A stretch of DNA of 64,000 nt from Candidatus Nezhaarchaeota archaeon (GCA_030055465.1 JASFYF010000001.1:958581-1022580), one strand, 5' to 3'; shown: positions 1-52,109, counted from the first letter of the stretch. Numbers and translations are program-made. The notes: generated from the letters alone by a model not told the origin.

Positions 1-495
1 GTGTACTTTGCTCCTTTAGCGCCTATAATACGATGCTGGGTGTACCATACTAGGTGGAGAGGTGTTGACCCAGGCTCCCTCTCGGGGAGATGCCCCCTAG
101 AGGCTAGAGAAAGAGATGTCGAGCTAATTTCGAGGGAACTGCTTGAAACGGAACTATTCGATCCCGCAAGGGTTGGCGTAAGGGGTGCAACGGTGCACGG
201 CCACTCTCTGAGGCTTGACGAGAACGGTTTGATGTTCGATATGCAGAGGAGGTACAAGTACGACCCCAGCAAGGGCGAAGTCGTCTACGTTAAGGATCAG
301 AGCGGCAAGCCATTGGACAAACCGGTGTACGTAGGCAAGCCGTTACCAGAAGAAGAGCTGAAGAAGATGACAACTCAGTTTAGGGTCGACTACATATCAT
401 TGAGGGATGACGCCGAGGTCATGGAGTTCGTGCAGAGACTACACTGGCTTCGAACGCTTGCAGGTGCAGATCCCAACCTAGCAAAGAATGTTTAA
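1..495 (+). CDS. mcrG: methyl-coenzyme M reductase gamma subunit, C-terminal part (5' end outside window)
   Basis: ORF is open at the window edge. The 164 aa contain an McrG-like segment (RGATVHGHSLRLDENGLMFD). It lies directly upstream of mcrA, as in mcr operons. Confidence 0.9.
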   Translation: MYFAPLAPIIRCWVYHTRWRGVDPGSLSGRCPLEARERDVELISRELLETELFDPARVGVRGATVHGHSLRLDENGLMFDMQRRYKYDPSKGEVVYVKDQSGKPLDKPVYVGKPLPEEELKKMTTQFRVDYISLRDDAEVMEFVQRLHWLRTLAGADPNLAKNV

Positions 496-537: not shown

Positions 538-2205
538 ATGACTACCCAAGAAAGGAAGTTCATGGAGGCGCTGCGCAGGAAGTTTAAGGAGTCTCCTGAA
601 GAGAAATACACTAAGTTTTACGTGTACGGTGGCTGGAAGCAGTCGAAGAGGAAGATCGAGTTCTTCGAGTGGAGCCAGAAAATAGCTAAAGAAAGAGGCA
701 TACCGATGTACAACCCAGACCTCCACCTAGGTGGAGGACCTGGCCAAAGAGTGCTGATGCCCTACCAGATATCGGGAACCGACATATTCGTGGAGCCTGA
801 CGACCTTCACTTCGTCAACAACGCCGCCATGCAGCAGATGTGGCATGATATAAGGAGGACTGTCATAGTTGGGTTGGACGCTGCCCATACTATACTCACC
901 CGAAGGCTAGGCAAAGAGGTTACCCCTGAAACCATAAATCACTACCTAGAGGTCTTAAACCACGCACTGCCCGGTGCTGCCGTAGTTCAAGAACACATGG
1001 TTGAAACTCATCCAGCCATAGTGTCCGACAGCTATGTAAAGGTCTTCACGGGCGATGATGAACTAGCCGACGAGATAGATGACAGGTTCCTCATAGACAT
1101 AAACAAAGAGTTCCCGGCAAACCAAGCAGCCCAGCTTAAACCTGCTATAGGTAAAAGGATCTACCAGGTTCTAAGGATGCCCACAATAATAGCGATGACA
1201 TGCGATGGTGGTACCATGTCACGATGGGCTGCAATGCAGATCTCGATGGCAATGATAAATGCATACAGGCTAATGGCCGGTGAAGCCGCCGTCGGTGAGT
1301 TTGCCTTCGCGGCTAAGCACGCCGAAGTCCTAGAGATGGGCACGCTCATGCCTTGGAGAAGGGTTAGGAGCCCCAACGAGCCTGGAGGAATACCTTTGGG
1401 CTACCTAGCCGACATGTGCCAGGCATCAAGGATTAAGCCTGAGGATCCTGCATGGTGTGCGCTTGAGACCATAAGCATGGCGGCAGTACTCTACGATCAG
1501 TTCTGGTTCGGCAGCTACATGAGTGGTGGTGTAGGCTTTACGCAGTATGCTACCGCCACGTACACCGATAACATATTAGATGACTTCTGCTACTATGGTA
1601 TGGACTACGTGCGGAAGAAATTTGGAGGCTACGCTAAGGCAAAGCCGAGCTGGGACATCGTAAGGGACGTTGCCACCGAGATAACGATGTACGGCCTTGA
1701 AGGATATGAGAGGTGGCCAGCCGCCATGGAGACGCACTTTGGCGGAAGCCAGAGAGCCGCCTGTGTGGCTGCTGGGGCTGGCGTGACCGTGTCAATAGCT
1801 ACGGGGGTAGCCCAAGCGGGGCTAAACGGTTGGTACTTGAGTCAACTGTTGCATAGGGAATCGGCAGGCAGATTAGGCTTCTACGGCTACGACTGTCAAG
1901 ATCAATGCGGCTCCACTAACAGTTTCTCTTGGAGGAGCGATGAAGGTCTACCGTTTGAGCTAAGAGGAGCCAACTACCCGAACTATGCAATGAATGTGGG
2001 GCACCAGTCAGCTTATGCCGGAATAGTCGAAGCAGCTCACGTCGCTAGGGGGGATGCCTGGTGTGTCAACCCCTTAATCAAGGTTGCCTTTGCCGACAAG
2101 AACCTGAAGTTCGACTTTACTAGACCAAGGCTCTGCTTCGCTAAGGGAGCACTAAGAGAGTTCATGCCGGCAGGACTCCTAGATCCAATAATTCCACCTC
2201 GGTAG
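538..2205 (+). CDS. mcrA: methyl-coenzyme M reductase alpha subunit
   Basis: 555 aa with hallmark McrA motifs: [66 protein letters not shown]. Confidence 0.97.
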
Positions 2206-2376: not shown

Positions 2377-4128
2377 TCAGCTGTTCGGCTGGGGGTTGGA
2401 CGTGAAACCTGAGCTTGAAGGTTGTGAGCACTTCGACCCGCTTAATAACTCCTTCTTGTAAAACCTCAAAGACGCCTTTATTGGACCCATGTAAAGCATC
2501 TCTCCGTTATCTATAACGATACCCCTATGGCATACCTCTTCAACGAGGCCGAGCTGGTGATCCACCAATACTGTGGATACGCTTAACCTAGAAACTGCGT
2601 TTTTAAGTGCATTAGCAGCTTTCCTAGCAGTTACTGGATCGAGGTCGCCGAAGGGCTCGTCGAGCAGTAAAATACTTGGGCTTGAAACAAGCGAGAGAGC
2701 CAAGGCGACCCTAACCTGCTCTCCACCCGAAAGTTCATGAGTCATCCTGTAGAGCACATCTTTGGGAAGTCTTAACGCTTCCAACAGCCCTTTAACCTGC
2801 TCTTCCACGAGCTCCTGCGGCATGGCCGGAAAAAGCTCTTTTACAATATCTTGGGTTAGGCCCAATTCTTCAAGCTTTATCTTTGCCTCCTCTGGGGGCA
2901 GCTCTGCTATTCTATGTATAGCATCCAACACCTTGACATCGATCCCCAGCTCTTTCGCCCTTCTTATAGAACCTTGAATCATGTCCCAACTTTTAATCCC
3001 AAGCCTAGAGGCGAAGAGATCTATAACCCTAGACCAGTGTGGCAGCGCGAATTCTTGGTGGAGTATCCCTATTTTCTGGCGGGCCTTCATGCTCTCTACG
3101 CCCAGCCTAGTTATGTCAATCCACCTACGGTCGCACTTGACGTGGACTTCGCCGCTCAGCGGTAGCTCAAGCCCAGCTAATATCCTCATTATAACCGTCT
3201 TACCAGAACCTGAAGGCCCAATTAACGCTGTAACCTCGCCGGTCCTAGCCTTGAAGTTAACCTCCTTGAGGGCAAACACCTCTCCAAGCGGTATGACATT
3301 ATAGCGCCTCGTGACTTTTAGCACTCTCAGAACAGGTTTAGCCCTCTTAGGCATTAATGGTTTGGGTTGGGGATCTTCAAGTCTCGATAGGAAGTTTCTA
3401 AGCAGTGTGCGGGGCCTTCCTTCTCCAACTACCCTGCCCTTGTCTAACCATATGACTCTATCCGCGAGCCTTTCGTGCATCTCAGGCATGTGAGAGGCCA
3501 TCAATATTGTGATGCCGATATCGTTTACCATTCTCAGGGCCTTTACAACCTCAAACCTCGTTTTTGGACAACTCATCGTGGCTGGCTCGTCAAGCAACAG
3601 TACCTCGGGCCTTTTCGCTATCTGCCTTGCGAGAAGGAGCCTCTGCTTCTCCCCTCCGCTGAGCGCTATGGCCCAGATATGTGATCTTTCCCTTAAACCC
3701 ACTAGACCCAGTATCTCCAAGGCCTCTTCAGCTAATTTTTGATATTCACCGGAGTCAGGGCTGGGCAGCGACTCTTCGCCATCGTACCTCCACTTCAAGG
3801 CCCTAATCACGTTGTCCAAAGCTGTCTCCGACCAAAGACCGAAAGACCTTTGAAGGTGTATGGCGGTTTTACGTTTGAGCTTCAAATAATCGTCGATCGA
3901 TGAGTCATGCCTGACAGCAACATCACCCACCTTTATGAAACCGCCATCGATTGTTTCGACGCCCCTGAGAACCCTTATTAAGGTTGTCTTACCTGAACCG
4001 CTTTCGCCTAAAAGGCCTAAGAATTCGCCTTTCTCGACGTCGAAGTTGACGTTGTCTAACGCCTTGAGTTCAAGGCCGCAGCTGGCCCTGTAAATCTTGG
4101 TTACCTCTCTAACCTCTATGAACGTCAT
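2377..4128 (-). CDS. double ABC-type ATPase, component-A2-like paralog (no membrane domain)
   Basis: 583 aa with two ATPase modules. Walker A motifs are GESGSGKT and GPSGSGKT; signatures are LSGGEKQR and LSGGEQVR. The N-terminal half resembles AtwA (LRGVE.., AIHLQRSFGLW..ALDNV) but lacks the CxxC..CxxC insert of the 10296 copy. Confidence 0.75.
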   Translation of the reverse strand: MTFIEVREVTKIYRASCGLELKALDNVNFDVEKGEFLGLLGESGSGKTTLIRVLRGVETIDGGFIKVGDVAVRHDSSIDDYLKLKRKTAIHLQRSFGLWSETALDNVIRALKWRYDGEESLPSPDSGEYQKLAEEALEILGLVGLRERSHIWAIALSGGEKQRLLLARQIAKRPEVLLLDEPATMSCPKTRFEVVKALRMVNDIGITILMASHMPEMHERLADRVIWLDKGRVVGEGRPRTLLRNFLSRLEDPQPKPLMPKRAKPVLRVLKVTRRYNVIPLGEVFALKEVNFKARTGEVTALIGPSGSGKTVIMRILAGLELPLSGEVHVKCDRRWIDITRLGVESMKARQKIGILHQEFALPHWSRVIDLFASRLGIKSWDMIQGSIRRAKELGIDVKVLDAIHRIAELPPEEAKIKLEELGLTQDIVKELFPAMPQELVEEQVKGLLEALRLPKDVLYRMTHELSGGEQVRVALALSLVSSPSILLLDEPFGDLDPVTARKAANALKNAVSRLSVSTVLVDHQLGLVEEVCHRGIVIDNGEMLYMGPIKASLRFYKKELLSGSKCSQPSSSGFTSNPQPNS

Positions 4129-4206: not shown

Positions 4207-4539
4207 ATGTTGAAGGAGCAGATCGAGATATTTCCCTATCGGATACTAAGCGAGAGGACCACTGAAGTACTATTGAAGAAGATATCAAAGTTAGATGGAA
4301 TAGTTGAAGCGATACCACAAGTGCTAAGATATGAAGATGGGGAAACCGTGACGAAAAGGATTATAGTGGCCCTAAACGGCACGGTCCCCACAGATAAAGT
4401 GCTTAACAAGCTAGACGAGATATGCAAGAACATGCTGCCCTTTGGTTACATGCTGAGAACAGGGGTCTTCATAAAGCCGAGGCCCACAGTCTCAGACTAT
4501 TTAAGGGGATACCCACCTCAAGGCGTAGAGGAGGATTGA
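4207..4539 (+). CDS. mcrD: methyl-coenzyme M reductase operon protein D (short form)
   Basis: 110 aa. The N-terminus is IEIFPYRILSERTTEVLLKKISKLDGI and the C-terminus is LPFGY..RTGVFIKPRPTVSDY, as in McrD. It is shorter than my recollection of classical McrD (~140-170 aa). Confidence 0.7.
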   Translation: MLKEQIEIFPYRILSERTTEVLLKKISKLDGIVEAIPQVLRYEDGETVTKRIIVALNGTVPTDKVLNKLDEICKNMLPFGYMLRTGVFIKPRPTVSDYLRGYPPQGVEED

Positions 4540-5053: not shown

Positions 5054-6475
5054 TTGGAGTTGAGCATTTTGCGGCCGAGCGAAGCTAAGATCACGGTCAT
5101 ATCGCCTGAAGTCTACACTTATGGGGCTATGCTTGTGGCTGGGGCGCTTGAGGAGGCTGGTTTTAGAGCTCAACTCATTAAAGCAACACCGACCACCGAG
5201 ATCAGCAGCATCCCTCAAGCCGATGTGTACGCCATTGGGTTGTACTCTCTCCTTCACGTTATGGAGTTTAAGAATTGGATCTCTTCGCTGAAGAGAGCAC
5301 GCAAAAAGCCGATCATAGTGGGAGGGCCGGTTACCGTCGTTCCGGAAGCAGCGTTGGAGAATGTTGATTGTATAGACGCTGTAGTTGTTGGAGAAGGAGA
5401 GGGAACCGTGGTGGACCTAGTTGACTCCCTTATTTCGCGAGGGGATCTGGAAAGCGTTGATGGCATAGCCTTCAGATCTGGAGGCGATATCGTCGCAACG
5501 AATCCGAGGGAGCCGGTAGACTTGGATAATAGGCCATACCCTAAAATTCCGGACGACATATCTTACCAGAGCATTCGAGGCGCACACGTATACATGGAGG
5601 TTTTGAGGGGATGCAAAGGTTCATGTGCTTTCTGCCAAGTTCCAAGGTTCTTTGGAAGGAAGATAAGGAGCAGGCCCTTGGACAAGGTAGTGGAGGAGGC
5701 AAAACTGTTTAGAAGAAAGGGAGCAATCAGAATCGCTATAAGCGGCGGCACAACCTCGTTTTACGGCTGCGGACCTTCTTGGGTGAACGAAGAGGAGATC
5801 CGTGGGCTGCTAAGGTCCCTCAGCGAGGTTGTTGGCTCGAAGAACCTGTCTGCGCCAGACATCAGAGCTGATGCGGCTACCGATGGAATTCTTGAAGCTA
5901 TAGCTAAGTATACCATCGGTTGGATCTTCTTCGGGATAGAGTCGGGGAGCCAGAAGATGCTGGATAAAATGCTTAAGGGCTTAAAGGTAAGCGATGTACT
6001 CGACGCAGTATACAGAGCAAGGAGGCTGGGCGTTAAGCCCGCGGGCTCATTTATTGTTGCATACTCAGGAGAGACCGATGAAGATTTTCAGGAAACCCTA
6101 AGCCTAGTTAGGGACCTTCCACTCATGGACCACTTTGTAAGCATAGCTGAACCCATACTTGGCACACCTCTAGCCGAAGAGGTAGCTGAGATGGATTTAC
6201 GCGAGAACCTTCTATTCGTTGATGACTCCTCCAGCTTTGCAAGGCTTCATGGCCTTTCAGTAGCTGAAATGAGGGCTTACAGGCTCATGGTTGAGGGGTA
6301 CTATGCTAGGCTTCTTTCGACAAGCTTACATGATGAAAGGGCGTTCAAGCTGTTTTTAAACGAAGTTAAGAAGCAGGGAAAGGATATTAAGGCGTGCACC
6401 TTGGAGGTTAAGAGGATTTATTCCATGCATCGACGGAGAAGCCTCAAGACTTCATGGTCAGGCGCTACATCTTGA
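5054..6475 (+). CDS. B12-binding-domain radical SAM enzyme (class B type)
   Basis: 473 aa. An N-terminal Rossmann-like B12-binding-type domain is followed by a CX3CX2C motif (CKGSCAFC, codons 187-194, nt 5612-5635). TTG start. Confidence 0.85.
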   Translation: MELSILRPSEAKITVISPEVYTYGAMLVAGALEEAGFRAQLIKATPTTEISSIPQADVYAIGLYSLLHVMEFKNWISSLKRARKKPIIVGGPVTVVPEAALENVDCIDAVVVGEGEGTVVDLVDSLISRGDLESVDGIAFRSGGDIVATNPREPVDLDNRPYPKIPDDISYQSIRGAHVYMEVLRGCKGSCAFCQVPRFFGRKIRSRPLDKVVEEAKLFRRKGAIRIAISGGTTSFYGCGPSWVNEEEIRGLLRSLSEVVGSKNLSAPDIRADAATDGILEAIAKYTIGWIFFGIESGSQKMLDKMLKGLKVSDVLDAVYRARRLGVKPAGSFIVAYSGETDEDFQETLSLVRDLPLMDHFVSIAEPILGTPLAEEVAEMDLRENLLFVDDSSSFARLHGLSVAEMRAYRLMVEGYYARLLSTSLHDERAFKLFLNEVKKQGKDIKACTLEVKRIYSMHRRRSLKTSWSGATS

Positions 6476-6663: not shown

Positions 6664-6963
6664 TTGGAAAGCGTAGTTAATAGGAGGGGGCTAAGAATAT
6701 CAGTTGGATCGTTGGTTCGGTACTTGAACACCGGGACAACCGGGGTAGTTACATCAATGGAGACCATTGATGGAAGGTGTTGGGCTCTAGTGGAGCCCAT
6801 CAATCTTTGCTATGATGTGGACTACTTAGAACCCCTCGGAGAAGCAGACACAGACATGAAAGATAAGGTTAGTAAGGTTAAAGTGGATGTGGGAAAAACT
6901 CTAAAAGAGGAAGAGGACGTAATAGAGAGATCAACAGAAGTTTCACCTTCAGGTGCGGGTTGA
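6664..6963 (+). CDS. small conserved archaeal protein (tentatively DUF2098-like)
   Basis: 99 aa with the segment GSLVRYLNTGTTGVVTSMETIDGRCWALVEPINLCYDVDYLEP and an acidic tail. TTG start. Its stop overlaps the next gene (TTGA). The family name is from memory only. Confidence 0.5.
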   Translation: MESVVNRRGLRISVGSLVRYLNTGTTGVVTSMETIDGRCWALVEPINLCYDVDYLEPLGEADTDMKDKVSKVKVDVGKTLKEEEDVIERSTEVSPSGAG

Positions 6964-7565
6964 AGGGAAGACGCTTGAACGGGTTCGAAAGCTTGAAGCG
7001 CATAGCGTCCATAGTGGACGTGACAAGGGAGACCGTGGAGGCTCTTCCCCGAGAAGAGGCCCTGAGCAGGCTTAACAGGCTATACGTTAACTTTCCTAAG
7101 GTAGTAGAAGGGATAGCTGAGGCCTTTCTGAATGAAAGGTTTTTAGACGTTTACTTCAGGTTGAAGATAGAGCTGCAGCTGGTCGAAAAAAGTAACCCTC
7201 CCGTTAGACCCGCCTTGGATCCCGAGTTTGCCTTAAGGTTAAGGCTCTACTCGCTTGATGACGCAGAGGTTGGAAGGTTTCTAGGGTATCCCGAGTGCTG
7301 CATACGTAGCTTCGTGGAGGACCTGAGGCTATCTTTCGATGAGGAACATTTGCGGGAGCTATGCGAATTGAGGAGAAGAGGGTTTCGAGTTATCGCGACC
7401 GCGGGCTTTATACCCTGTAGCTTGAACTGCAGTGAGGCGATGAAACAGGGACTTTTGACGCACGTAGAAGACGACTCCAAGATAAGGCTCCTAGATGATG
7501 AACTTAAAAAGAACCTTCCCCACCCACATCCAGCATACCCAAACTTCTTCGAATACCTGTACTGA
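6960..7565 (+). CDS. Cys-motif protein (tentatively DUF483-like)
   Basis: 201 aa with GYPECCIRSF ... GFIPCSLNCSEA. It has a 4-nt overlap with the upstream gene and lies 9 nt before mmp5. Confidence 0.55.
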   Translation: MKGRRLNGFESLKRIASIVDVTRETVEALPREEALSRLNRLYVNFPKVVEGIAEAFLNERFLDVYFRLKIELQLVEKSNPPVRPALDPEFALRLRLYSLDDAEVGRFLGYPECCIRSFVEDLRLSFDEEHLRELCELRRRGFRVIATAGFIPCSLNCSEAMKQGLLTHVEDDSKIRLLDDELKKNLPHPHPAYPNFFEYLY

Positions 7566-7574
7566 AAAACGGGA

Positions 7575-8045
7575 ATGAGAGGGCCAGCTGAAATGCCTAA
7601 AAAGGTAATGATATTTCCGGTTAACAGCCTAATACTATACGACTTGGTTTCGAGGTTTGGACATCAGCCCTTGGCGATGATGTCTAAAATTGCCGAAAAA
7701 GTAAGGGATCCCGAAGTAGACAGCCCACCCATCAACATAACTTATGAGGAACCGAGACATGGATTGAAGTATTGCGCAGTCGAAGTTCCCTCAGGTGTGA
7801 GGGGTAGAATGGCGTTGCTGGGCCCTTTAATCGAGGAGGCCGAAGCCGCCATAATAGTTGACGACCCAGATATAGAGTTCGGTTGTTCCGGCTGTGCGAG
7901 GACCAACGAGCTTGTAATCCAAATGCTGCACAATAAGGGCATTCCTATACTGAGGTTGAAGTATCCTCGAAGCAGTGGTGAAGCCAGAGACTTCGTCAAG
8001 TCGATAGTTGACTTCCTCAAGAGCATTGATGGTGGTGCAAGTTGA
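7575..8045 (+). CDS. methanogenesis marker protein 5
   Basis: 156 aa with FPVNSLILYDLVSRFGHQPLA, DSPPINITYEEPRHGLKYCAVEVPSGVRGRMALLGPLIEEAEAAII and FGCSGCARTNE, matching my recollection of Mmp5. The true start is possibly the ATG at 7593. Confidence 0.7.
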   Translation: MRGPAEMPKKVMIFPVNSLILYDLVSRFGHQPLAMMSKIAEKVRDPEVDSPPINITYEEPRHGLKYCAVEVPSGVRGRMALLGPLIEEAEAAIIVDDPDIEFGCSGCARTNELVIQMLHNKGIPILRLKYPRSSGEARDFVKSIVDFLKSIDGGAS

Positions 8046-9274
8046 CAGTTAAGGTGGCTCAGATCTCTTGCGGGACCGAGTACAGCGGAGTTCAAAAGGA
8101 GATAGCTAGGGCGGCCGAAAAAACTGAGATGGAGCTGGTATTTCCTGAAGTCGATTCCAGCGATATTAAGAGAGCCATGGAGGCGATAGGCCTTTCGCCT
8201 GCAAGTTCCGGGTTAAAGGTGATGCTAGCGAGGGCCCTAGTGATAGTTGAAGGTAGAGCCGACGTCGACGGTGCAATAGTGATGACTTGCTTCAGGTGTG
8301 CTGAAGGAGCCCTCGTCAGGCACGCCATAAGGCGCTTTTTGCATGAGAAAGCACGCATACCAGTGATATCCTATTCTTTTACCGAAAGAACGAAGGCCGA
8401 AAACCTCCTTCTAAGATTTGAAGCGCTGTCAAACATGATAAAACGACGCTTCCTCCTCGCCAGGAAGAAGCATGAAGGCTTAACTATCGGGATAGACTCG
8501 GGCTCAACAATGACGAAGGGCGTAGCCATGAAGGACGGCGAAATACTGGCTTTCCACTGGCTTCCAACAACGGAAGTGGTGGTCTCAGGTTTAAAGGTCT
8601 ATAAAGAACTGCTGTCAAAAGCAAGTATATCGGAGGGAATGGTTGAGGCAGTAGGCGTAACGGGCTACGGTCGATTCATGTTAGGTAAGGAGCTTAATGC
8701 AAACCTTATGCAAGAAGAGATCACGGTGTGCTCGAAGGGTGCCTCCTTCTTGGGTAAAGCGCAAGAGGGCAACGCGACAATAATAGACATAGGCGGCGCC
8801 GACAACAAGGCAATATCAATCTACGACGGCGTTCCTTATAGCTTCACTGTTGGAGGGGTTTGCGCCGGAGCCTCCGGTCGCTTTCTCGAGATAGCTGCTT
8901 CGAGGTTAGGAGTTGACATAGAGACATTCGGCGAAATAGCATTGAAGGGCGACCCACGCAAGATAGCTATGAATGCTTACTGCATAGTCTTTGGAATGCA
9001 CGATCTCGTTACGGCTTTGGCGAGCGGGGCCAGAAAGGAGGACGTTGCAGCGGCAGCTTGCTACAGCGTCGCGGAGCAATTTTTCGAGCAGCAATTTCAA
9101 GAGGTTGAGGCTAAAGAGCCCGTCCTCCAGATAGGAGGAACGTCACTGATAAAGGGCCTCATAAAGGCGTTTGAGGACACCCTGAAGATGAAAATAGTGG
9201 TGCCCCCCTACTCCCAGTACTGCGGTGCTGTTGGTGCAGCGATACTATCCTCGGGGCTTTTGGGGAGATCCTAA
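8042..9274 (+). CDS. methanogenesis marker protein 15 (BadF/BadG/BcrA/BcrD-type ATPase fold)
   Basis: 410 aa. The C-terminal 270 aa has an acetate/sugar-kinase-type ATPase signature (GIDSGSTMTKGVAM). The unique N-terminal domain, size and context fit Mmp15. TTGA overlap with mmp5. Confidence 0.75.
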   Translation: MTVKVAQISCGTEYSGVQKEIARAAEKTEMELVFPEVDSSDIKRAMEAIGLSPASSGLKVMLARALVIVEGRADVDGAIVMTCFRCAEGALVRHAIRRFLHEKARIPVISYSFTERTKAENLLLRFEALSNMIKRRFLLARKKHEGLTIGIDSGSTMTKGVAMKDGEILAFHWLPTTEVVVSGLKVYKELLSKASISEGMVEAVGVTGYGRFMLGKELNANLMQEEITVCSKGASFLGKAQEGNATIIDIGGADNKAISIYDGVPYSFTVGGVCAGASGRFLEIAASRLGVDIETFGEIALKGDPRKIAMNAYCIVFGMHDLVTALASGARKEDVAAAACYSVAEQFFEQQFQEVEAKEPVLQIGGTSLIKGLIKAFEDTLKMKIVVPPYSQYCGAVGAAILSSGLLGRS

Positions 9275-10176
9275 CTCAGCATGGACTCCGGCAAAAGCCG
9301 CACAATGATGTTGTCCTCTAAAACTGACCTCTCCAACGAGGCAACCTCTCCGAGCTTGTGGCCTTCTATCACCACATTGCCTATGATTTTGGCGTAATCA
9401 TCATACTTTAACTGAACCCTGACTCCGTCAATCTTCAAAACCGTTACCTCTCTAGCATCCTCTACTTGTTCCTCGAGCTCCTTCTTCAGTAGAGCTGGTG
9501 GGAACAGGGGAGGATCTTCAGAGAGCTCTTTCCTCCTCCTCTCTAAGAGGACTCCAAGCGACTCAACGAGTTCACTTAGTGCTTTAAGCTCGTTGCTAGA
9601 CTTCAATCTATGAGCTATCCTCCCGAGACCACCTATATATGTGACTTCTGGGGGCAGATCAACCCTCTGCGGTCCACCAACTATCACGACAGGCACTTTA
9701 AGCGCCTTAACCAGGCCGGCCTTCCTTTTTATGCATTCACCCACGTTGCCCATGATGAAGACTGCAGCGTCAACCTCGTTTAGAAACCTGCTTTCGAAAC
9801 TGGTTAGCAAAGCTCTCTTCTGTCCGACCCCTCTTGAAAGGCCAACCATAAAGGTCTTTGATCCATATCTTCTTAGGTATTCATTTATGTCGCATGCAGG
9901 GTGAGGTAGGTGCCTGTAGGACATGCTGGGGGGTACCACAGCTATTTCGGAGCCTATCAGCTTGGCCTCGCTTACTTTAGCTTTAAGTTCACTCGCCAGC
10001 TTCAACAGTGCATCTATGTCGGATCTCGGAATCGCTATGAACATTACAAGGTCTAAACCCATAGTCAATTCTTGCACTACAATGCCTCCCAGGTCGTCTA
10101 CGAGCTCCAACACCTCTTGTTTTCTGTAGGGGCCGCCCACGAACATGTAGTATCCGTAGTCGTACACGGAGTGCAC
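9271..10176 (-). CDS. methanogenesis marker protein 7
   Basis: 301 aa with HLPHPACDINEYLRRYGSKTFMVGLSRGVGQK. Size and context fit Mmp7 as I recall it. It is convergent with mmp15 with a 4-nt overlap. Confidence 0.65.
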   Translation of the reverse strand: MHSVYDYGYYMFVGGPYRKQEVLELVDDLGGIVVQELTMGLDLVMFIAIPRSDIDALLKLASELKAKVSEAKLIGSEIAVVPPSMSYRHLPHPACDINEYLRRYGSKTFMVGLSRGVGQKRALLTSFESRFLNEVDAAVFIMGNVGECIKRKAGLVKALKVPVVIVGGPQRVDLPPEVTYIGGLGRIAHRLKSSNELKALSELVESLGVLLERRRKELSEDPPLFPPALLKKELEEQVEDAREVTVLKIDGVRVQLKYDDYAKIIGNVVIEGHKLGEVASLERSVLEDNIIVRLLPESMLS

Positions 10177-10295: not shown

Positions 10296-11885
10296 ATGCT
10301 GTTATTAGAAGTCCACAAGGTGAGTAAGCAGTTTGATGGAATTAAAGTGCTTGATGGGATCTCGTTCAGTTTAAAGCTTGGAGAAAGCCTGGGAATACTT
10401 GGTAAAAGCGGAGCGGGAAAGTCTGTCCTCATACATATGCTTAGGGGAATGAGGGGCTACGAACCAGATGAAGGCAAGGTCATATACCGCGTTGATTATT
10501 GTCCATCATGTCTGTGGGTTGAACCCCCCTCATTTAACGTGGGGCAATGTCCTCATTGTAATGCCATAATGGAGCACAGGACCGTTGACCTATGGGATGA
10601 TGTGGACTCCGAGGTTTCCAAGGCTGTGAAGGCGAGGATCGCTATAATGTTCCAAAGAACCTTCGCCCTTTACGGTAACCTTACACCAATTGAAAACATT
10701 ATGGAGGCCCTTCGAAGGGCTAGGGTAAAGGAAGATGCGGCGCCCAAGTTGGCCATAGAGTACGTTAAGCTCACAAACCTAGTGCATAGGTTGCTTCATC
10801 CAGCCGAAAACCTGAGTGGAGGAGAAAAACAAAGGGTTGTGCTTGCAAGGCAGATAGCTGCGAACCCTATACTCCTCTTAGCTGATGAGCCCACGGGCAC
10901 TCTAGATCCCTACAACGCTAACCTGATAAGCAATTTGCTCGCCCACGAATTCAAGGAGAAGAAGAAGTGCATGATAATAGCCTCCCACATACCTAGCCTC
11001 CTAGAGAGGCTGTGCGACAGAGTGTTGTGGCTTGAAAAGGGAAGGATAGTGATGGATTCTGCCTCGCGAGAAGTCGTCTCGGCATTTCTAGGAGAAGTCA
11101 AGGAATTCGTGCGCGAGGAGGCGTCGGTGGGCCAAGAAGTGCTTAGAGCCATAGATGTGAGCAAGTATTACTATTCTATCGATAGGGGTTTAACGAAGGC
11201 GGTGGACCGAGTGACCTTCGAGGTTAAGGATAAAGAGATATTTGGGATCATTGGTAAAAGCGGTGCTGGAAAAACAACCCTTTCTAGAATTATATGTGGG
11301 CTTACCCAACCGTCCTCAGGTAAGGTTGAGATTAAAATTGGAAATAAATGGTACGACATAACTGCACCGGGCTATGAGGGGAGAGCCATAGCCTTAAGCA
11401 ATATAGGTCTACTGCACCAAGAGTACTCCCTTTTCCCTCACAGAACGGTTCTGGAGAACTTAAGTACCTCCATAGGACTCGAGCTCCCCGAGGAGCTTGC
11501 TAGGATGAAGGCCATATACACCTTAAAGTCCGTGGGAATAGACCCGACCGTAATTGATGGGATCCTAGAAAAGTACCCTGATGAGCTCAGCGAAGGCGAA
11601 AGGCATAGAATAGCGTTGGCCCAAGTCCTAATAAGGGAGCCCAAGATCGTCGTGCTTGACGAGCCCTCGGGAACCATGGATGCTGTGACTAAAGTTGAGG
11701 TTGCAAAATCGATAACGATGTCTAGGTCCTGGCTCGATGAGACGTTTATAATAGTTTCCCACGACATCGACTTCGTGAGGTTTACGTGTGACAGGGTAGC
11801 ACTAATGAAGAATGGGAGAATAGCTGGTTACCTAGATCCCAGAAAGATATCATGGGAAATGTTGGCGGCCGAGCTCAGCGACTAA
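10296..11885 (+). CDS. atwA: methyl-coenzyme M reductase system component A2 (double ABC ATPase)
   Basis: 529 aa with two GKSGAGK(S/T) Walker A motifs plus LSGGEKQR and LSEGERHR. It has LRGMRGYEP, a CPSC..CPHC zinc-ribbon insert (nt 10500-10559) and [13 protein letters not shown], all typical of AtwA. Confidence 0.9.
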
Positions 11886-14579: not shown

Positions 14580-15824
14580 GTGGTGGAGCACTTGAAGCTT
14601 GCTAGTTGCCCTAAAAGGTACTACTACGGTACTCACAGAGCTCGTGAACCCGAGGAGACTTTAAGGCTTATCGAGCCCAAAGCAAAGGAGATAGGCGTAA
14701 CGAGGGTTTCAGATATAACTGGTCTTGATAGGGTAGGCATACCCATTTACTCATGTGTGAGGCCCAGAGCTGCTCAGGGCGCTGTATCCGTGTACTCCGG
14801 TAAGGGGGTAACGAAAACCTTGGCTAAGGTCTCCGCAATCATGGAGGCGATTGAAAGATTCTCGGCTGAAATGTCACCGGACCACGAGCAGAGGATTGTT
14901 AAGGGATCTTATGGTGCCCTTTTAAACAAACATAACGTCGTGGATCCATCTACGCTGATACTACCCATCAATTCTCCCTACTCTTCATCGTCGACGATTA
15001 GGTGGATTAACGGGTTCGACATAATGAATTCCGAGGAGGTTCTTGTACCTGTGAGTGCGGTGTTTCATCCCTATAGCCCTGATGATGACGTGCATTTATT
15101 CAAAACTAACACTAACGGTCTCGCTTCTGGAAACACAATGGAGGAGGCCGTGCTCCATGGTTTAATGGAGGTGGTGGAGCGGGATGCATGGAGTCTAGCG
15201 GAGCTATCTAGAGATGGAGGTGCAATTCTTAAGCCACCTGAAAAGGGGGGGCTCATACGCGAATTGATATCTAAGTTTGAGAAGGCATGCATTAAAGTGA
15301 TACTTCGAGATATAACTTCGGACTTGGGTATACCGGTTGTCGCGGCTGTGTCTGAAGACCTTAAAATAAGGGACCCAGCGCTCCTCACGATAGGCTTTGG
15401 AGCACACTTAGACCCTGAAATAGCGGCTGTAAGGGCATTGCTTGAAGTAGCTCAGAGCAGGCTGGTTCAGATACAGGGGGCTAGGGAAGACGCGTACCGA
15501 GCTAACCTCATGAGGTTAGTCGGTTACGAAAGGGTGAAGCGATTGAATGAACATTGGTTTTCGGAGCTTGAAGCTAAGGAGCTTTCAAGCATTCCAAGAG
15601 CAGCTAAGGAAGACATAGTGGATGATATAATGCTCGTGCTTCAGAGAATTAAGGAAAAGGGAACTGAAAGGGTAATCGTTGTGGACCTTACGCGAGCTGA
15701 GATCTCCATTCCAACGGTTAGAGTTATAGTCCCGGGGCTCGAGGTTTACAGCGTAGATCAGGAGAGAATAGGTTCAAGGGGGAGAGAATGCTTAAAGAAA
15801 AGGAGGGAGAGAGCAAAACGGTGA
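14580..15824 (+). CDS. ycaO: YcaO-domain protein (methanogenesis marker 1; McrA glycine thioamidation)
   Basis: 414 aa with a YcaO-type pattern (TNGLASGNTMEEAVLHGLMEVVERDAW). It is followed by an overlapping tfuA. Confidence 0.9.
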   Translation: MVEHLKLASCPKRYYYGTHRAREPEETLRLIEPKAKEIGVTRVSDITGLDRVGIPIYSCVRPRAAQGAVSVYSGKGVTKTLAKVSAIMEAIERFSAEMSPDHEQRIVKGSYGALLNKHNVVDPSTLILPINSPYSSSSTIRWINGFDIMNSEEVLVPVSAVFHPYSPDDDVHLFKTNTNGLASGNTMEEAVLHGLMEVVERDAWSLAELSRDGGAILKPPEKGGLIRELISKFEKACIKVILRDITSDLGIPVVAAVSEDLKIRDPALLTIGFGAHLDPEIAAVRALLEVAQSRLVQIQGAREDAYRANLMRLVGYERVKRLNEHWFSELEAKELSSIPRAAKEDIVDDIMLVLQRIKEKGTERVIVVDLTRAEISIPTVRVIVPGLEVYSVDQERIGSRGRECLKKRRERAKR

Positions 15825-16471
15825 TTTTCACGGGTCCAAGCCTCAACTCTTTAGAGGCCTCTTCAATATTTCCGGGCGCCATATACAAGCCACCAATAAG
15901 GCGAGGTGACGCGATAAAGGCGTACGAGGAAGGTGCCAAGGTCATAGCTATAATAGATGGAGTTTTCTTTGATGAGGTTGCGGTGGCCCCAAGGGAATTA
16001 CTCTACCTGCTCGACAAAGGAGTCACAGTGGTTGGTGGGGGAAGCATTGGTGCTTTGAGGGCCGCTGAGCTCGACATCTTCGGCATGATAGGAGTAGGCG
16101 AGGTATACGAGATGTACAAGAGAGGAGAGATAGACTCAGACGACGAGGTGGCGCTAATTTTCAACCCCTACACATTTGAACCGCTCTCCGAGCCTCTTGT
16201 GAATATCCGCTTTAACCTAAAGAAGGCAGTTGAGATCGGCTTGCTGGAAGCACGCGTAGCTCAGGGAATTTTGGAGGTAGCTAAGAAAATGCATTACTCC
16301 CAGAGAAGCTATGTTGGAGTTCTAAGAAAAACCGTGGAGGAGGGGCTTATCGAAGAGGAGCTATACCATAGTCTCTCAATGTACTTCGCAAATAACGCGG
16401 TTGACTTAAAGAGGCTGGACGCCATTAAAGTTGTGGAAAAAGTGAAGGGCCTTTGCAGGCCTACATCATAA
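15788..16471 (+). CDS. tfuA: TfuA-like protein
   Basis: VIFTGPSL..PPIRRGD..IIDGVFF..GGGSIGALRAAEL..DDEVAL. An alternative GTG start at 15821 gives a GTGA overlap with the ycaO stop and has GGAGG 14 nt upstream. Confidence 0.85.
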   Translation: MLKEKEGESKTVIFTGPSLNSLEASSIFPGAIYKPPIRRGDAIKAYEEGAKVIAIIDGVFFDEVAVAPRELLYLLDKGVTVVGGGSIGALRAAELDIFGMIGVGEVYEMYKRGEIDSDDEVALIFNPYTFEPLSEPLVNIRFNLKKAVEIGLLEARVAQGILEVAKKMHYSQRSYVGVLRKTVEEGLIEEELYHSLSMYFANNAVDLKRLDAIKVVEKVKGLCRPTS

Positions 16472-34540: not shown

Positions 34541-34648
34541 AACTTCGCGAGCCGGGGTGGCTGAGTGGACAAAGCGCCGGCCTCGAGATCTCATGGAGTT
34601 TGAGGCCAGAAAGCCGGTGCCCCAAGGGGGCACGCGGGTTCAAATCCC
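34541..34648 (+). tRNA. tRNA-Ser(CGA), class II, with a ~24-nt intron at position 37/38 (about 34578-34601)
   Basis: Acceptor GCCGGGG/CCCCGGC. Anticodon stem CCGGC...GCCGG is interrupted after CTCGAG. Long variable arm. T arm GCGGG-TTCAAAT-CCCGC. No encoded CCA. Confidence 0.85.
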
Positions 34649-34930
34649 GCCCCCGGCGCTAGTGCATCACCACTTCTACGAAGCAACTGAAACCCAGAGG
34701 GCTCAACGTCCATAAAAGGCTGGTTTTCACCTCTCTTTTGCTGGAGTGCGTGAAAACCATGAATTCGAGATCGATTGATAAAATGCGTATAAACATGGAC
34801 CTCCACTAATATGACCGTTAAACTACATCTAACCCTCCAATCCTTCACTTCATAATACCATAGTGGTGATGATGCTTTACGAGCCTAAACGTTATTTTAC
34901 GGAGCGCGAAGACATTATGAGTGAGGTACA

Positions 34931-51995: not shown

Positions 51996-52109
51996 GCGGG
52001 GGTTCCCGAGCAGGTCAAAGGGGCGGGACTCAAGATCACGTGTAAGACGTTGAGGTGATGGAAGATCCCGTGGCGTAGGCCTTCGTGGGTTCGAATCCCA
52101 CCCCCCGCA
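51996..52109 (+). tRNA. tRNA-Leu(CAA), class II, with a 30-nt intron at 37/38 (52035-52064)
   Basis: Acceptor GCGGGGG/CCCCCGC. Anticodon stem CGGGA...TCCCG encloses 37 nt beginning CTCAAG. T arm GTGGG-TTCGAAT-CCCAC. No encoded CCA. Confidence 0.85.

Follow-up and report, generated by a model that had tools for sequence, protein, structure and literature searches.

A probable McrA glutamine C-methyltransferase gene (mgmA) in the mcr-mmp cluster of a Nezhaarchaeota genome, with decayed copies in sister genera

What does a B12-binding radical SAM enzyme act upon when its gene lies between an mcrD-like gene and the mmp genes of a Candidatus Nezhaarchaeota archaeon? [quoted passage not shown] We analysed this proposal in the window, i.e., the whole stretch of 64,000 nucleotides that carries the gene (GCA_030055465.1 JASFYF010000001.1:958581-1022580; G000:C1:958581-1022580 in our own numbering), which belongs to an assembly consisting of a single contig of 1,024,082 bases, rated 67% complete. 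The features of the gene and its surroundings are given below, with positions counted from the first letter of the window.

1..495, + strand: 3' portion of mcrG, truncated by the left edge of the window (TIGR03259, 219.8 bits, profile positions 89-243 of 244)
538..2205, + strand: mcrA, encoding the predicted substrate protein (TIGR03256, 983.6 bits; top PDB match M. kandleri McrA)
1738..1755, + strand: codons of F401-G-G-S-Q405-R406 in McrA, the minimal QCMT recognition motif with the predicted target Gln405 (alignment; PMC13469106)
1759-1761, + strand: codon of Ala408, the Q+3 position of McrA (residue reading)
2377..4128, - strand: divergent double ABC ATPase, the second component-A2-like gene (TIGR03269, 298.5 bits; cut-off 517 not reached)
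4207..4539, + strand: short McrD-like gene, 110 aa (PF02505, 62.5 bits; TIGR03260, 64 bits, short of the required 100)
5054..6475, + strand: mgmA (QCMT), predicted cobamide-dependent radical SAM McrA glutamine C-alpha-methyltransferase (TIGR04014; PDB 9CCB; AlphaFold2/Foldseek)
5096..5419, + strand: B12-binding Rossmann domain, residues 15-122 (PF02310, 49.7 bits; cut-off 32.1)
5597..6106, + strand: radical SAM core domain, residues 182-351 (PF04055, 89.6 bits)
5612..5635, + strand: CX3CX2C [4Fe-4S] cluster motif, C187/C191/C194 (direct sequence reading)
6107..6472, + strand: C-terminal helical domain of MgmA, residues ~352-473 (9CCB alignment to residue 454; model helices 372-468)
6664-6963, + strand: DUF2098 gene (PF09871, 61 bits)
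6960-7565, + strand: DUF483 gene (PF04467, 104 bits)
7575-8045, + strand: mmp5 (TIGR03271, 219 bits)
8042-9274, + strand: mmp15 (TIGR03286, 615.5 bits)
9271..10176, - strand: mmp7 / McrC-family gene (PF04609, 287 bits; TIGR03274, 318.5 bits, short of the required 349)
10296..11885, + strand: atwA, MCR component A2 (TIGR03269, 710.9 bits; cut-off 517)
14580-15824, + strand: ycaO, McrA thioglycine machinery (TIGR03266, 515.7 bits, above cut-off)
15788-16471, + strand: tfuA, McrA thioglycine machinery (NF033432, 263.3 bits, above cut-off)

The gene and the family of its product

The gene is an uninterrupted frame of 473 amino acids that begins with TTG, the sole start codon type on offer, and lies 2.8 kb downstream of mcrA. 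Further in-frame TTGs are found at 5060 and 5069; since the family profile does not set in before residue 12, any of the three may be the start, a spread of at most five codons. The B12-binding domain, which displays the strand/helix alternation of a Rossmann fold in the structural model, precedes the radical SAM core in the order originally proposed, and the position given for the cluster motif was exact, its cysteine codons being TGC 5612-5614, TGT 5624-5626 and TGC 5633-5635 (C-KGS-C-AF-C). These three cysteines are invariant across 57 family members. The final 15-20 residues form a low-confidence tail outside the family profile, where pLDDT drops to 56. The placement between mcrD and the mmp genes also holds, with the McrD-like gene upstream and the DUF2098-DUF483-mmp5-mmp15 series downstream.

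The neighbourhood is conserved among relatives. The DUF2098 and DUF483 genes are syntenic in four of them, and the divergent A2-like ATPase directly after mcrA is 71-73% identical and syntenic in three. The match of the McrD-like protein is split into two stretches, but its 70-74% identity in relatives shows that it is a real, shortened gene. The remaining McrA-modifying genes in the window are ycaO and tfuA. An Rfam scan of the window returned five tRNAs as its sole matches, leaving the 514-bp gap upstream of mgmA empty; two of these matches (34551-34658 and 51996-52109) extend over 108 and 114 bases where the model has 71 positions, and are suggestive of intron-containing tRNA genes.

Profile comparison assigned the product to TIGR04014, the NCBIfam equivalog for the McrA glutamine C-methyltransferase, at 505.3 bits, where 360 is the cut-off; the alignment spans residues 12-449 on profile positions 1-428 of 434, and the assignment was confirmed on the genome. 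The next family, TIGR04013, reached 155.8 bits, below its cut-off of 251, and the other radical SAM families among the matches listed (the best 25 of 33 NCBIfam families) scored at most 91 bits against cut-offs of 250 to 750. The PDB sequence search aligned residues 11-454 with 9CCB (E 2.9e-99), the crystal structure of Methanothermobacter marburgensis MgmA (PMC11796369). Public homologues of 68-72% identity are named 'methyl-coenzyme M reductase glutamine C-methyltransferase [Candidatus Nezhaarchaeales archaeon]' or 'TIGR04014 family ... [Thermoproteota]'.

An AlphaFold2 model built from 57 homologues had a mean pLDDT of 94.8 and retrieved 9CCB as the top Foldseek match (E 1e-46, TM 0.97 when target-normalised, rmsd 1.5 Å), whereas the runners-up MtaB, MiaB, CysS, OxsB and TsrM gave a TM of ~0.6. 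The model matches the three-domain fold of the solved MgmA, i.e., Rossmann domain, 3/4 TIM barrel and C-terminal domain. Among the columns invariant in 56 homologues, all 49 are kept, as are 56 of the 60 near-invariant ones, the alterations being T66L, V216A, P338S and P369L. In a maximum-likelihood tree from a quick search, sampled from the top-scoring matches only and thus without Methanococcales and Methanopyrus, the product fell within an 8-sequence clade (99% support) inside the MgmA family, and a long, 100% supported branch separated the 57 MgmA rows from two class B paralogues of relatives. Two of the eight clade sequences carry source names, Candidatus Nezhaarchaeales and Thermoproteota. 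The clade is 45-50% identical to the characterised enzymes.

The McrA target and the predicted reaction

The McrA encoded in the window contains FGGSQR, the minimal six-residue motif that QCMT requires in vitro (PMC13469106), and its Q405 aligns with Gln400 of M. marburgensis McrA. At Q+3, Ala or Gly is found in 84 of 85 McrAs of MgmA-encoding organisms (PMC11796369), a rule that Ala408 fits. The original prediction had listed six McrA modification targets as retained. Alignment with the M. marburgensis protein bears out five of these (H261=His257, Q405=Gln400, G450=Gly445, D455=Asp450, C457=Cys452) but moves the arginine from R277 to R275 (=Arg271), because McrA residues 211-313 align without gaps to residues 207-309 of the M. 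marburgensis chain. Arg271 is the second R of VRRARG, and R275 (codon 1360-1362) is the second R of WRRVRS; as both R275 and R277 (codon 1366-1368) are arginines, the arginine target is still kept.

A few departures from the M. marburgensis McrA were noticed near these sites. Where RRARG usually has Ala and Gly, the present McrA has Val276 and Ser278. YDCQDQCG (C453, 1894-1896) stands where M. marburgensis has YDLQDQCG, and this cysteine is common to relatives of the family and some Methanomethylicia, with Gln in others. QRAAC (C409, 1762-1764) corresponds to QRAAV, the cysteine occurring in this genome only among those compared.

What the analysis establishes is thus the family and fold of the protein, the integrity of its catalytic and invariant residues, the target motif and the mcr linkage; the ORF very probably encodes an intact MgmA/QCMT that would methylate Gln405 of McrA, with both the activity and the presence of methyl-Gln predicted from sequence. 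The glutamine-type option of the original prediction is supported by the TIGR04014 assignment, the 9CCB match, the mcr linkage and the FGGSQR motif alike, whereas nothing in the analysis supports its option of an undescribed specificity.

A class B mechanism has been published for QCMT (PMC9401015; PMC13469106), and we infer the mechanism of the present protein by homology with the characterised enzymes. The substrate would be nascent, still unfolded McrA. The [4Fe-4S] cluster on C187/C191/C194 would reductively cleave one SAM to give a 5'-deoxyadenosyl radical, which may then take the C-alpha hydrogen from the glutamine of FGGSQR. Methyl-cobamide, presumably bound base-off in the N-terminal Rossmann domain, would donate its methyl group to the substrate radical, and a second SAM would re-methylate the cobamide. 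The expected products are methylated McrA, carrying 2-(S)-methylglutamine at Gln405, 5'-deoxyadenosine and S-adenosylhomocysteine.

For the cofactor of such an enzyme, we searched for genes of the late cobamide steps; neither CbiB nor CobS turned up in the 1.02 Mb contig of this 67% complete assembly, while CbiB is present in the relatives G001, G002 and G005. Likewise, mtrA was not found in the contig and is present in all nine relatives of the same family. Given the completeness of the assembly, missing sequence is a likelier explanation than gene loss for mtrA, CbiB and CobS. At the locus of a 68%-identical thermoproteotal homologue (L030 1336-4424), mgmA lies a few kb from CbiZ and CbiB, which serve cobamide salvage and remodelling, and from an aminotransferase gene, with a YcaO gene 7 kb downstream; the vicinity of CbiZ and CbiB ties the enzyme to its cofactor supply.

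Loss of mgmA in relatives and the alternative readings

We then compared the locus with 40 relatives, of which 14 encode McrA and only one (G001) encodes an MgmA above the cut-off. A tblastn search with the window proteins against the mcr loci of four relatives from the same family revealed strict synteny, with the mgmA site of the mcr-mmp cluster occupied in G001 and holding remnants in G005 and G003. The G001 gene is open, 70% identical and reaches the contig end. In G005 (L026 9664-10374, - strand), the remnant is broken into three frames (residues 3-34, 35-144 and 146-177); residues ~178-252, with the cluster motif, are missing, a piece covering 253-325 comes next, and the C-terminal third is gone. 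G003 (L028 10389-10629, + strand) retains two pieces of ~35-45 codons, one with an in-frame stop, and in G002 (L027 9610-10109) tblastn detected no mgmA trace in the ~500 bp gap between the mcrD-like gene and DUF2098. The McrAs of G002, G003 and G005 are nonetheless 89-92% identical to that of the window and carry the same FGGSQRAA.

The loss is specific to mgmA and not tied to the loss of Mtr, since G002, G003 and G005 keep both ycaO and mtrA; ycaO is absent from G004, which is without McrA. We had considered that mgmA loss might track Mtr loss, as in a switch to Mtr-free methylotrophy, and rejected this because the same three genomes retain mtrA. That sister genera lost the gene is indicative of weak selection on mgmA in this family. 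The decay series also fits the picture, drawn in the paper on the cultivated Ca. Methanonezhaarchaeum (PMC12700198), of a class in which methanogenesis genes often erode.

Clustering of MgmA with mcr and its presence in TACK organisms have already been noted (PMC11796369). Linkage to mcr is frequent in the family without being universal. In the P0011 locus, which carries a 49%-identical homologue, 6 kb separate mgmA from mcrG-mcrA-DUF483 and DUF2098 adjoins it, while no mcrA occurs within 8 kb of mgmA around the 68%-identical homologue with CbiZ and CbiB nearby (P0006 locus). In the distant lineage with the 49%-identical MgmA, DUF483 directly follows mcrA and DUF2098 abuts mgmA (L033 1982-2614 and 10156-10473); the recurrence of DUF483 and DUF2098 with mcr and mgmA there and in the window suggests a gene set for MCR maturation or activation.

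Mmp10 (TIGR03278) was not found in the 41 genomes searched (our own and the 40 relatives), 15 of which encode McrA, and its best match in the genome of the window, of 22 bits, lies at another locus. That Verstraetearchaeota lack it has been on record since 2017 (bioRxiv 10.1101/211441), yet a 2026 paper calls methyl-Arg universal (PMC13469106). The arginine target of Mmp10 is conserved in the class although Mmp10 itself was not found. For a divergent Mmp10, we also used PF04459 (DUF512) as a probe, which left all 41 genomes unmatched and the controls M. jannaschii and M. acetivorans as well, and was therefore the wrong probe and uninformative. An Mmp10 identity for the ORF itself was rejected, as TIGR03278 does not occur among the best 25 of 33 NCBIfam families at E <= 0.01.

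The absence of Mmp10 bears on an alternative reading, in which the enzyme C-methylates or epimerises a residue other than Gln405, in McrA or in another protein, with compensation for the missing Mmp10 as one possibility. The promiscuity of QCMT in vitro for the side chain at the target position (PMC13469106) and the modest identity of the clade to characterised enzymes favour such an altered or additional specificity. However, we consider it very unlikely: the protein scores above the equivalog cut-off, its fold is near-identical to 9CCB, every invariant residue is kept, and the local McrA carries the exact minimal motif. QCMT reads the residues flanking its target, and the context of Arg275, PWRRVRS, is unlike FGGSQR; an essential compensating role is further disfavoured because sister genomes without Mmp10 have lost mgmA. 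If true, an altered or additional site in the Nezhaarchaeales clade would amount to an undescribed modification pattern in a thermoproteotal MCR. The decay series raises a different concern, namely that the gene, with its sequence still intact, is non-functional or unexpressed, at an early stage of what befell the frameshifted and deleted copy of G005, the two remnants with a stop in G003 and the empty site of G002. Its four replaced near-invariant residues, its TTG start and the upstream gap of 514 bp, without a verified promoter, could be read in that sense. Against this, the 473 codons are unbroken, the 49 invariant positions are retained and the model is confident, and the comparison with the G001 copy (pN 0.20, pS 0.80), for which the saturation of synonymous sites limits the quotable figure to a pN/pS of ~0.25, involves a gene that also stays open to its contig end, so that silent decay seems most improbable to us.

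There remains the reading that this B12-radical SAM enzyme serves lipids, cofactors or tRNA modification, in a pathway unrelated to McrA, and lies near mcr by chance, to which we assign a negligible probability. Some sources do name homologues 'tRNA-2-methylthio-N6-dimethylallyladenosine synthase', and the MiaB/RimO, HpnJ, BchE and lipid B12-rSAM families do give weak matches below threshold; yet these fall far short of their cut-offs where TIGR04014 exceeds its own, MiaB superposes much less well than 9CCB, and the class B paralogues of relatives stand outside the family on their long branch. Profile scores, the 9CCB match, the tree and Foldseek effectively refute it. The best homologues are thus members of the MgmA family with mcr linkage, and both the profile comparison and the structural modelling that the original prediction had proposed as checks, the former with the Mmp10 model unmatched among the families listed and the latter with the superposition on 9CCB, came out on the side of an McrA glutamine methyltransferase.

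The gene is an ordinary member of a known family and, in this sense, already known, because publications already cover the family, the reaction it catalyses, its structure and its occurrence in TACK archaea, and homologues of ~70% identity are already named. Our literature search found no co-mention of Nezhaarchaeota with MgmA, QCMT or methylglutamine, and names such as Nezha, Verstraete, Korarchae and similar do not occur in the supplements of PMC11796369. A member of the class is now in culture (PMC12700198), and MCR modifications are not among the topics of the paper on this Ca. Methanonezhaarchaeum. The finding therefore adds little past a correct annotation, its modest value lying in the context, where the stepwise decay of mgmA in sister genera is new, if minor. 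Genomes with an intact, a decaying or no mgmA, all encoding a nearly identical McrA, constitute a natural experiment on the role of methyl-Gln in MCR, and a comparison of MCR across such strains could address why some methanogens methylate the glutamine and others do not, a question posed in PMC11796369.

Comparison with known systems

The closest known system is MgmA/QCMT itself, a family that NCBIfam also lists under the alias B12_SAM_MJ_0865 (TIGR04014). It has been characterised from Methanoculleus thermophilus (PMC9401015), from M. marburgensis together with a second homologue abbreviated Mh (structure 9CCB; PMC11796369), and from M. thermolithotrophicus (PMC13469106), and its function is established in vitro (PMC9401015, PMC13469106) as well as in vivo and structurally (PMC11796369). 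The present protein shares the domain order, the CX3CX2C motif, the C-terminal domain, the fold (target-normalised TM 0.97) and all family-invariant residues, and its setting shares the FGGSQR motif and the Q+3 Ala of the cognate McrA as well as the position of the gene beside mcr. It differs in being only ~40-46% identical to the M. marburgensis MgmA (40% in the Foldseek alignment) and 45-47% identical to the Methanobacterium homologues. Unlike the characterised enzymes, it comes from a thermoproteotal (Nezhaarchaeales) host and has a C-terminal tail extending ~15-20 residues past the profile, and its gene lies in an mcrD-like / DUF2098-DUF483-mmp5-mmp15 cluster rather than beside a classical mcrBDCGA operon. 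Tyr64 occupies the position of Gln49 of the M. marburgensis enzyme, in a column that is variable in the family (H/Y/F/Q).

The archaeal class B paralogues and TIGR04013 (MJ_1487-type), the nearest non-MgmA family by score, have the same two-domain architecture; TIGR04013 nevertheless stays below its cut-off of 251 here, and the paralogues of relatives, with their CPF(N/R)CIFC motif, branch outside MgmA. Mmp10, the McrA arginine C5-methyltransferase, resembles the predicted enzyme in being a cobamide-dependent radical SAM protein that transfers a methyl group to an sp3 carbon of a residue in the McrA active site, and, like mgmA here, it is often encoded beside mcr. It belongs, however, to another family, TIGR03278 being absent from the matches listed. 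Its domain order also differs: a 2022 study by Fyfe et al. is reported to place the radical SAM domain first, in agreement with the remark on Mmp10 in the original prediction, whereas in the Nezhaarchaeota protein, as in the characterised MgmA/QCMT, the B12-binding domain leads.
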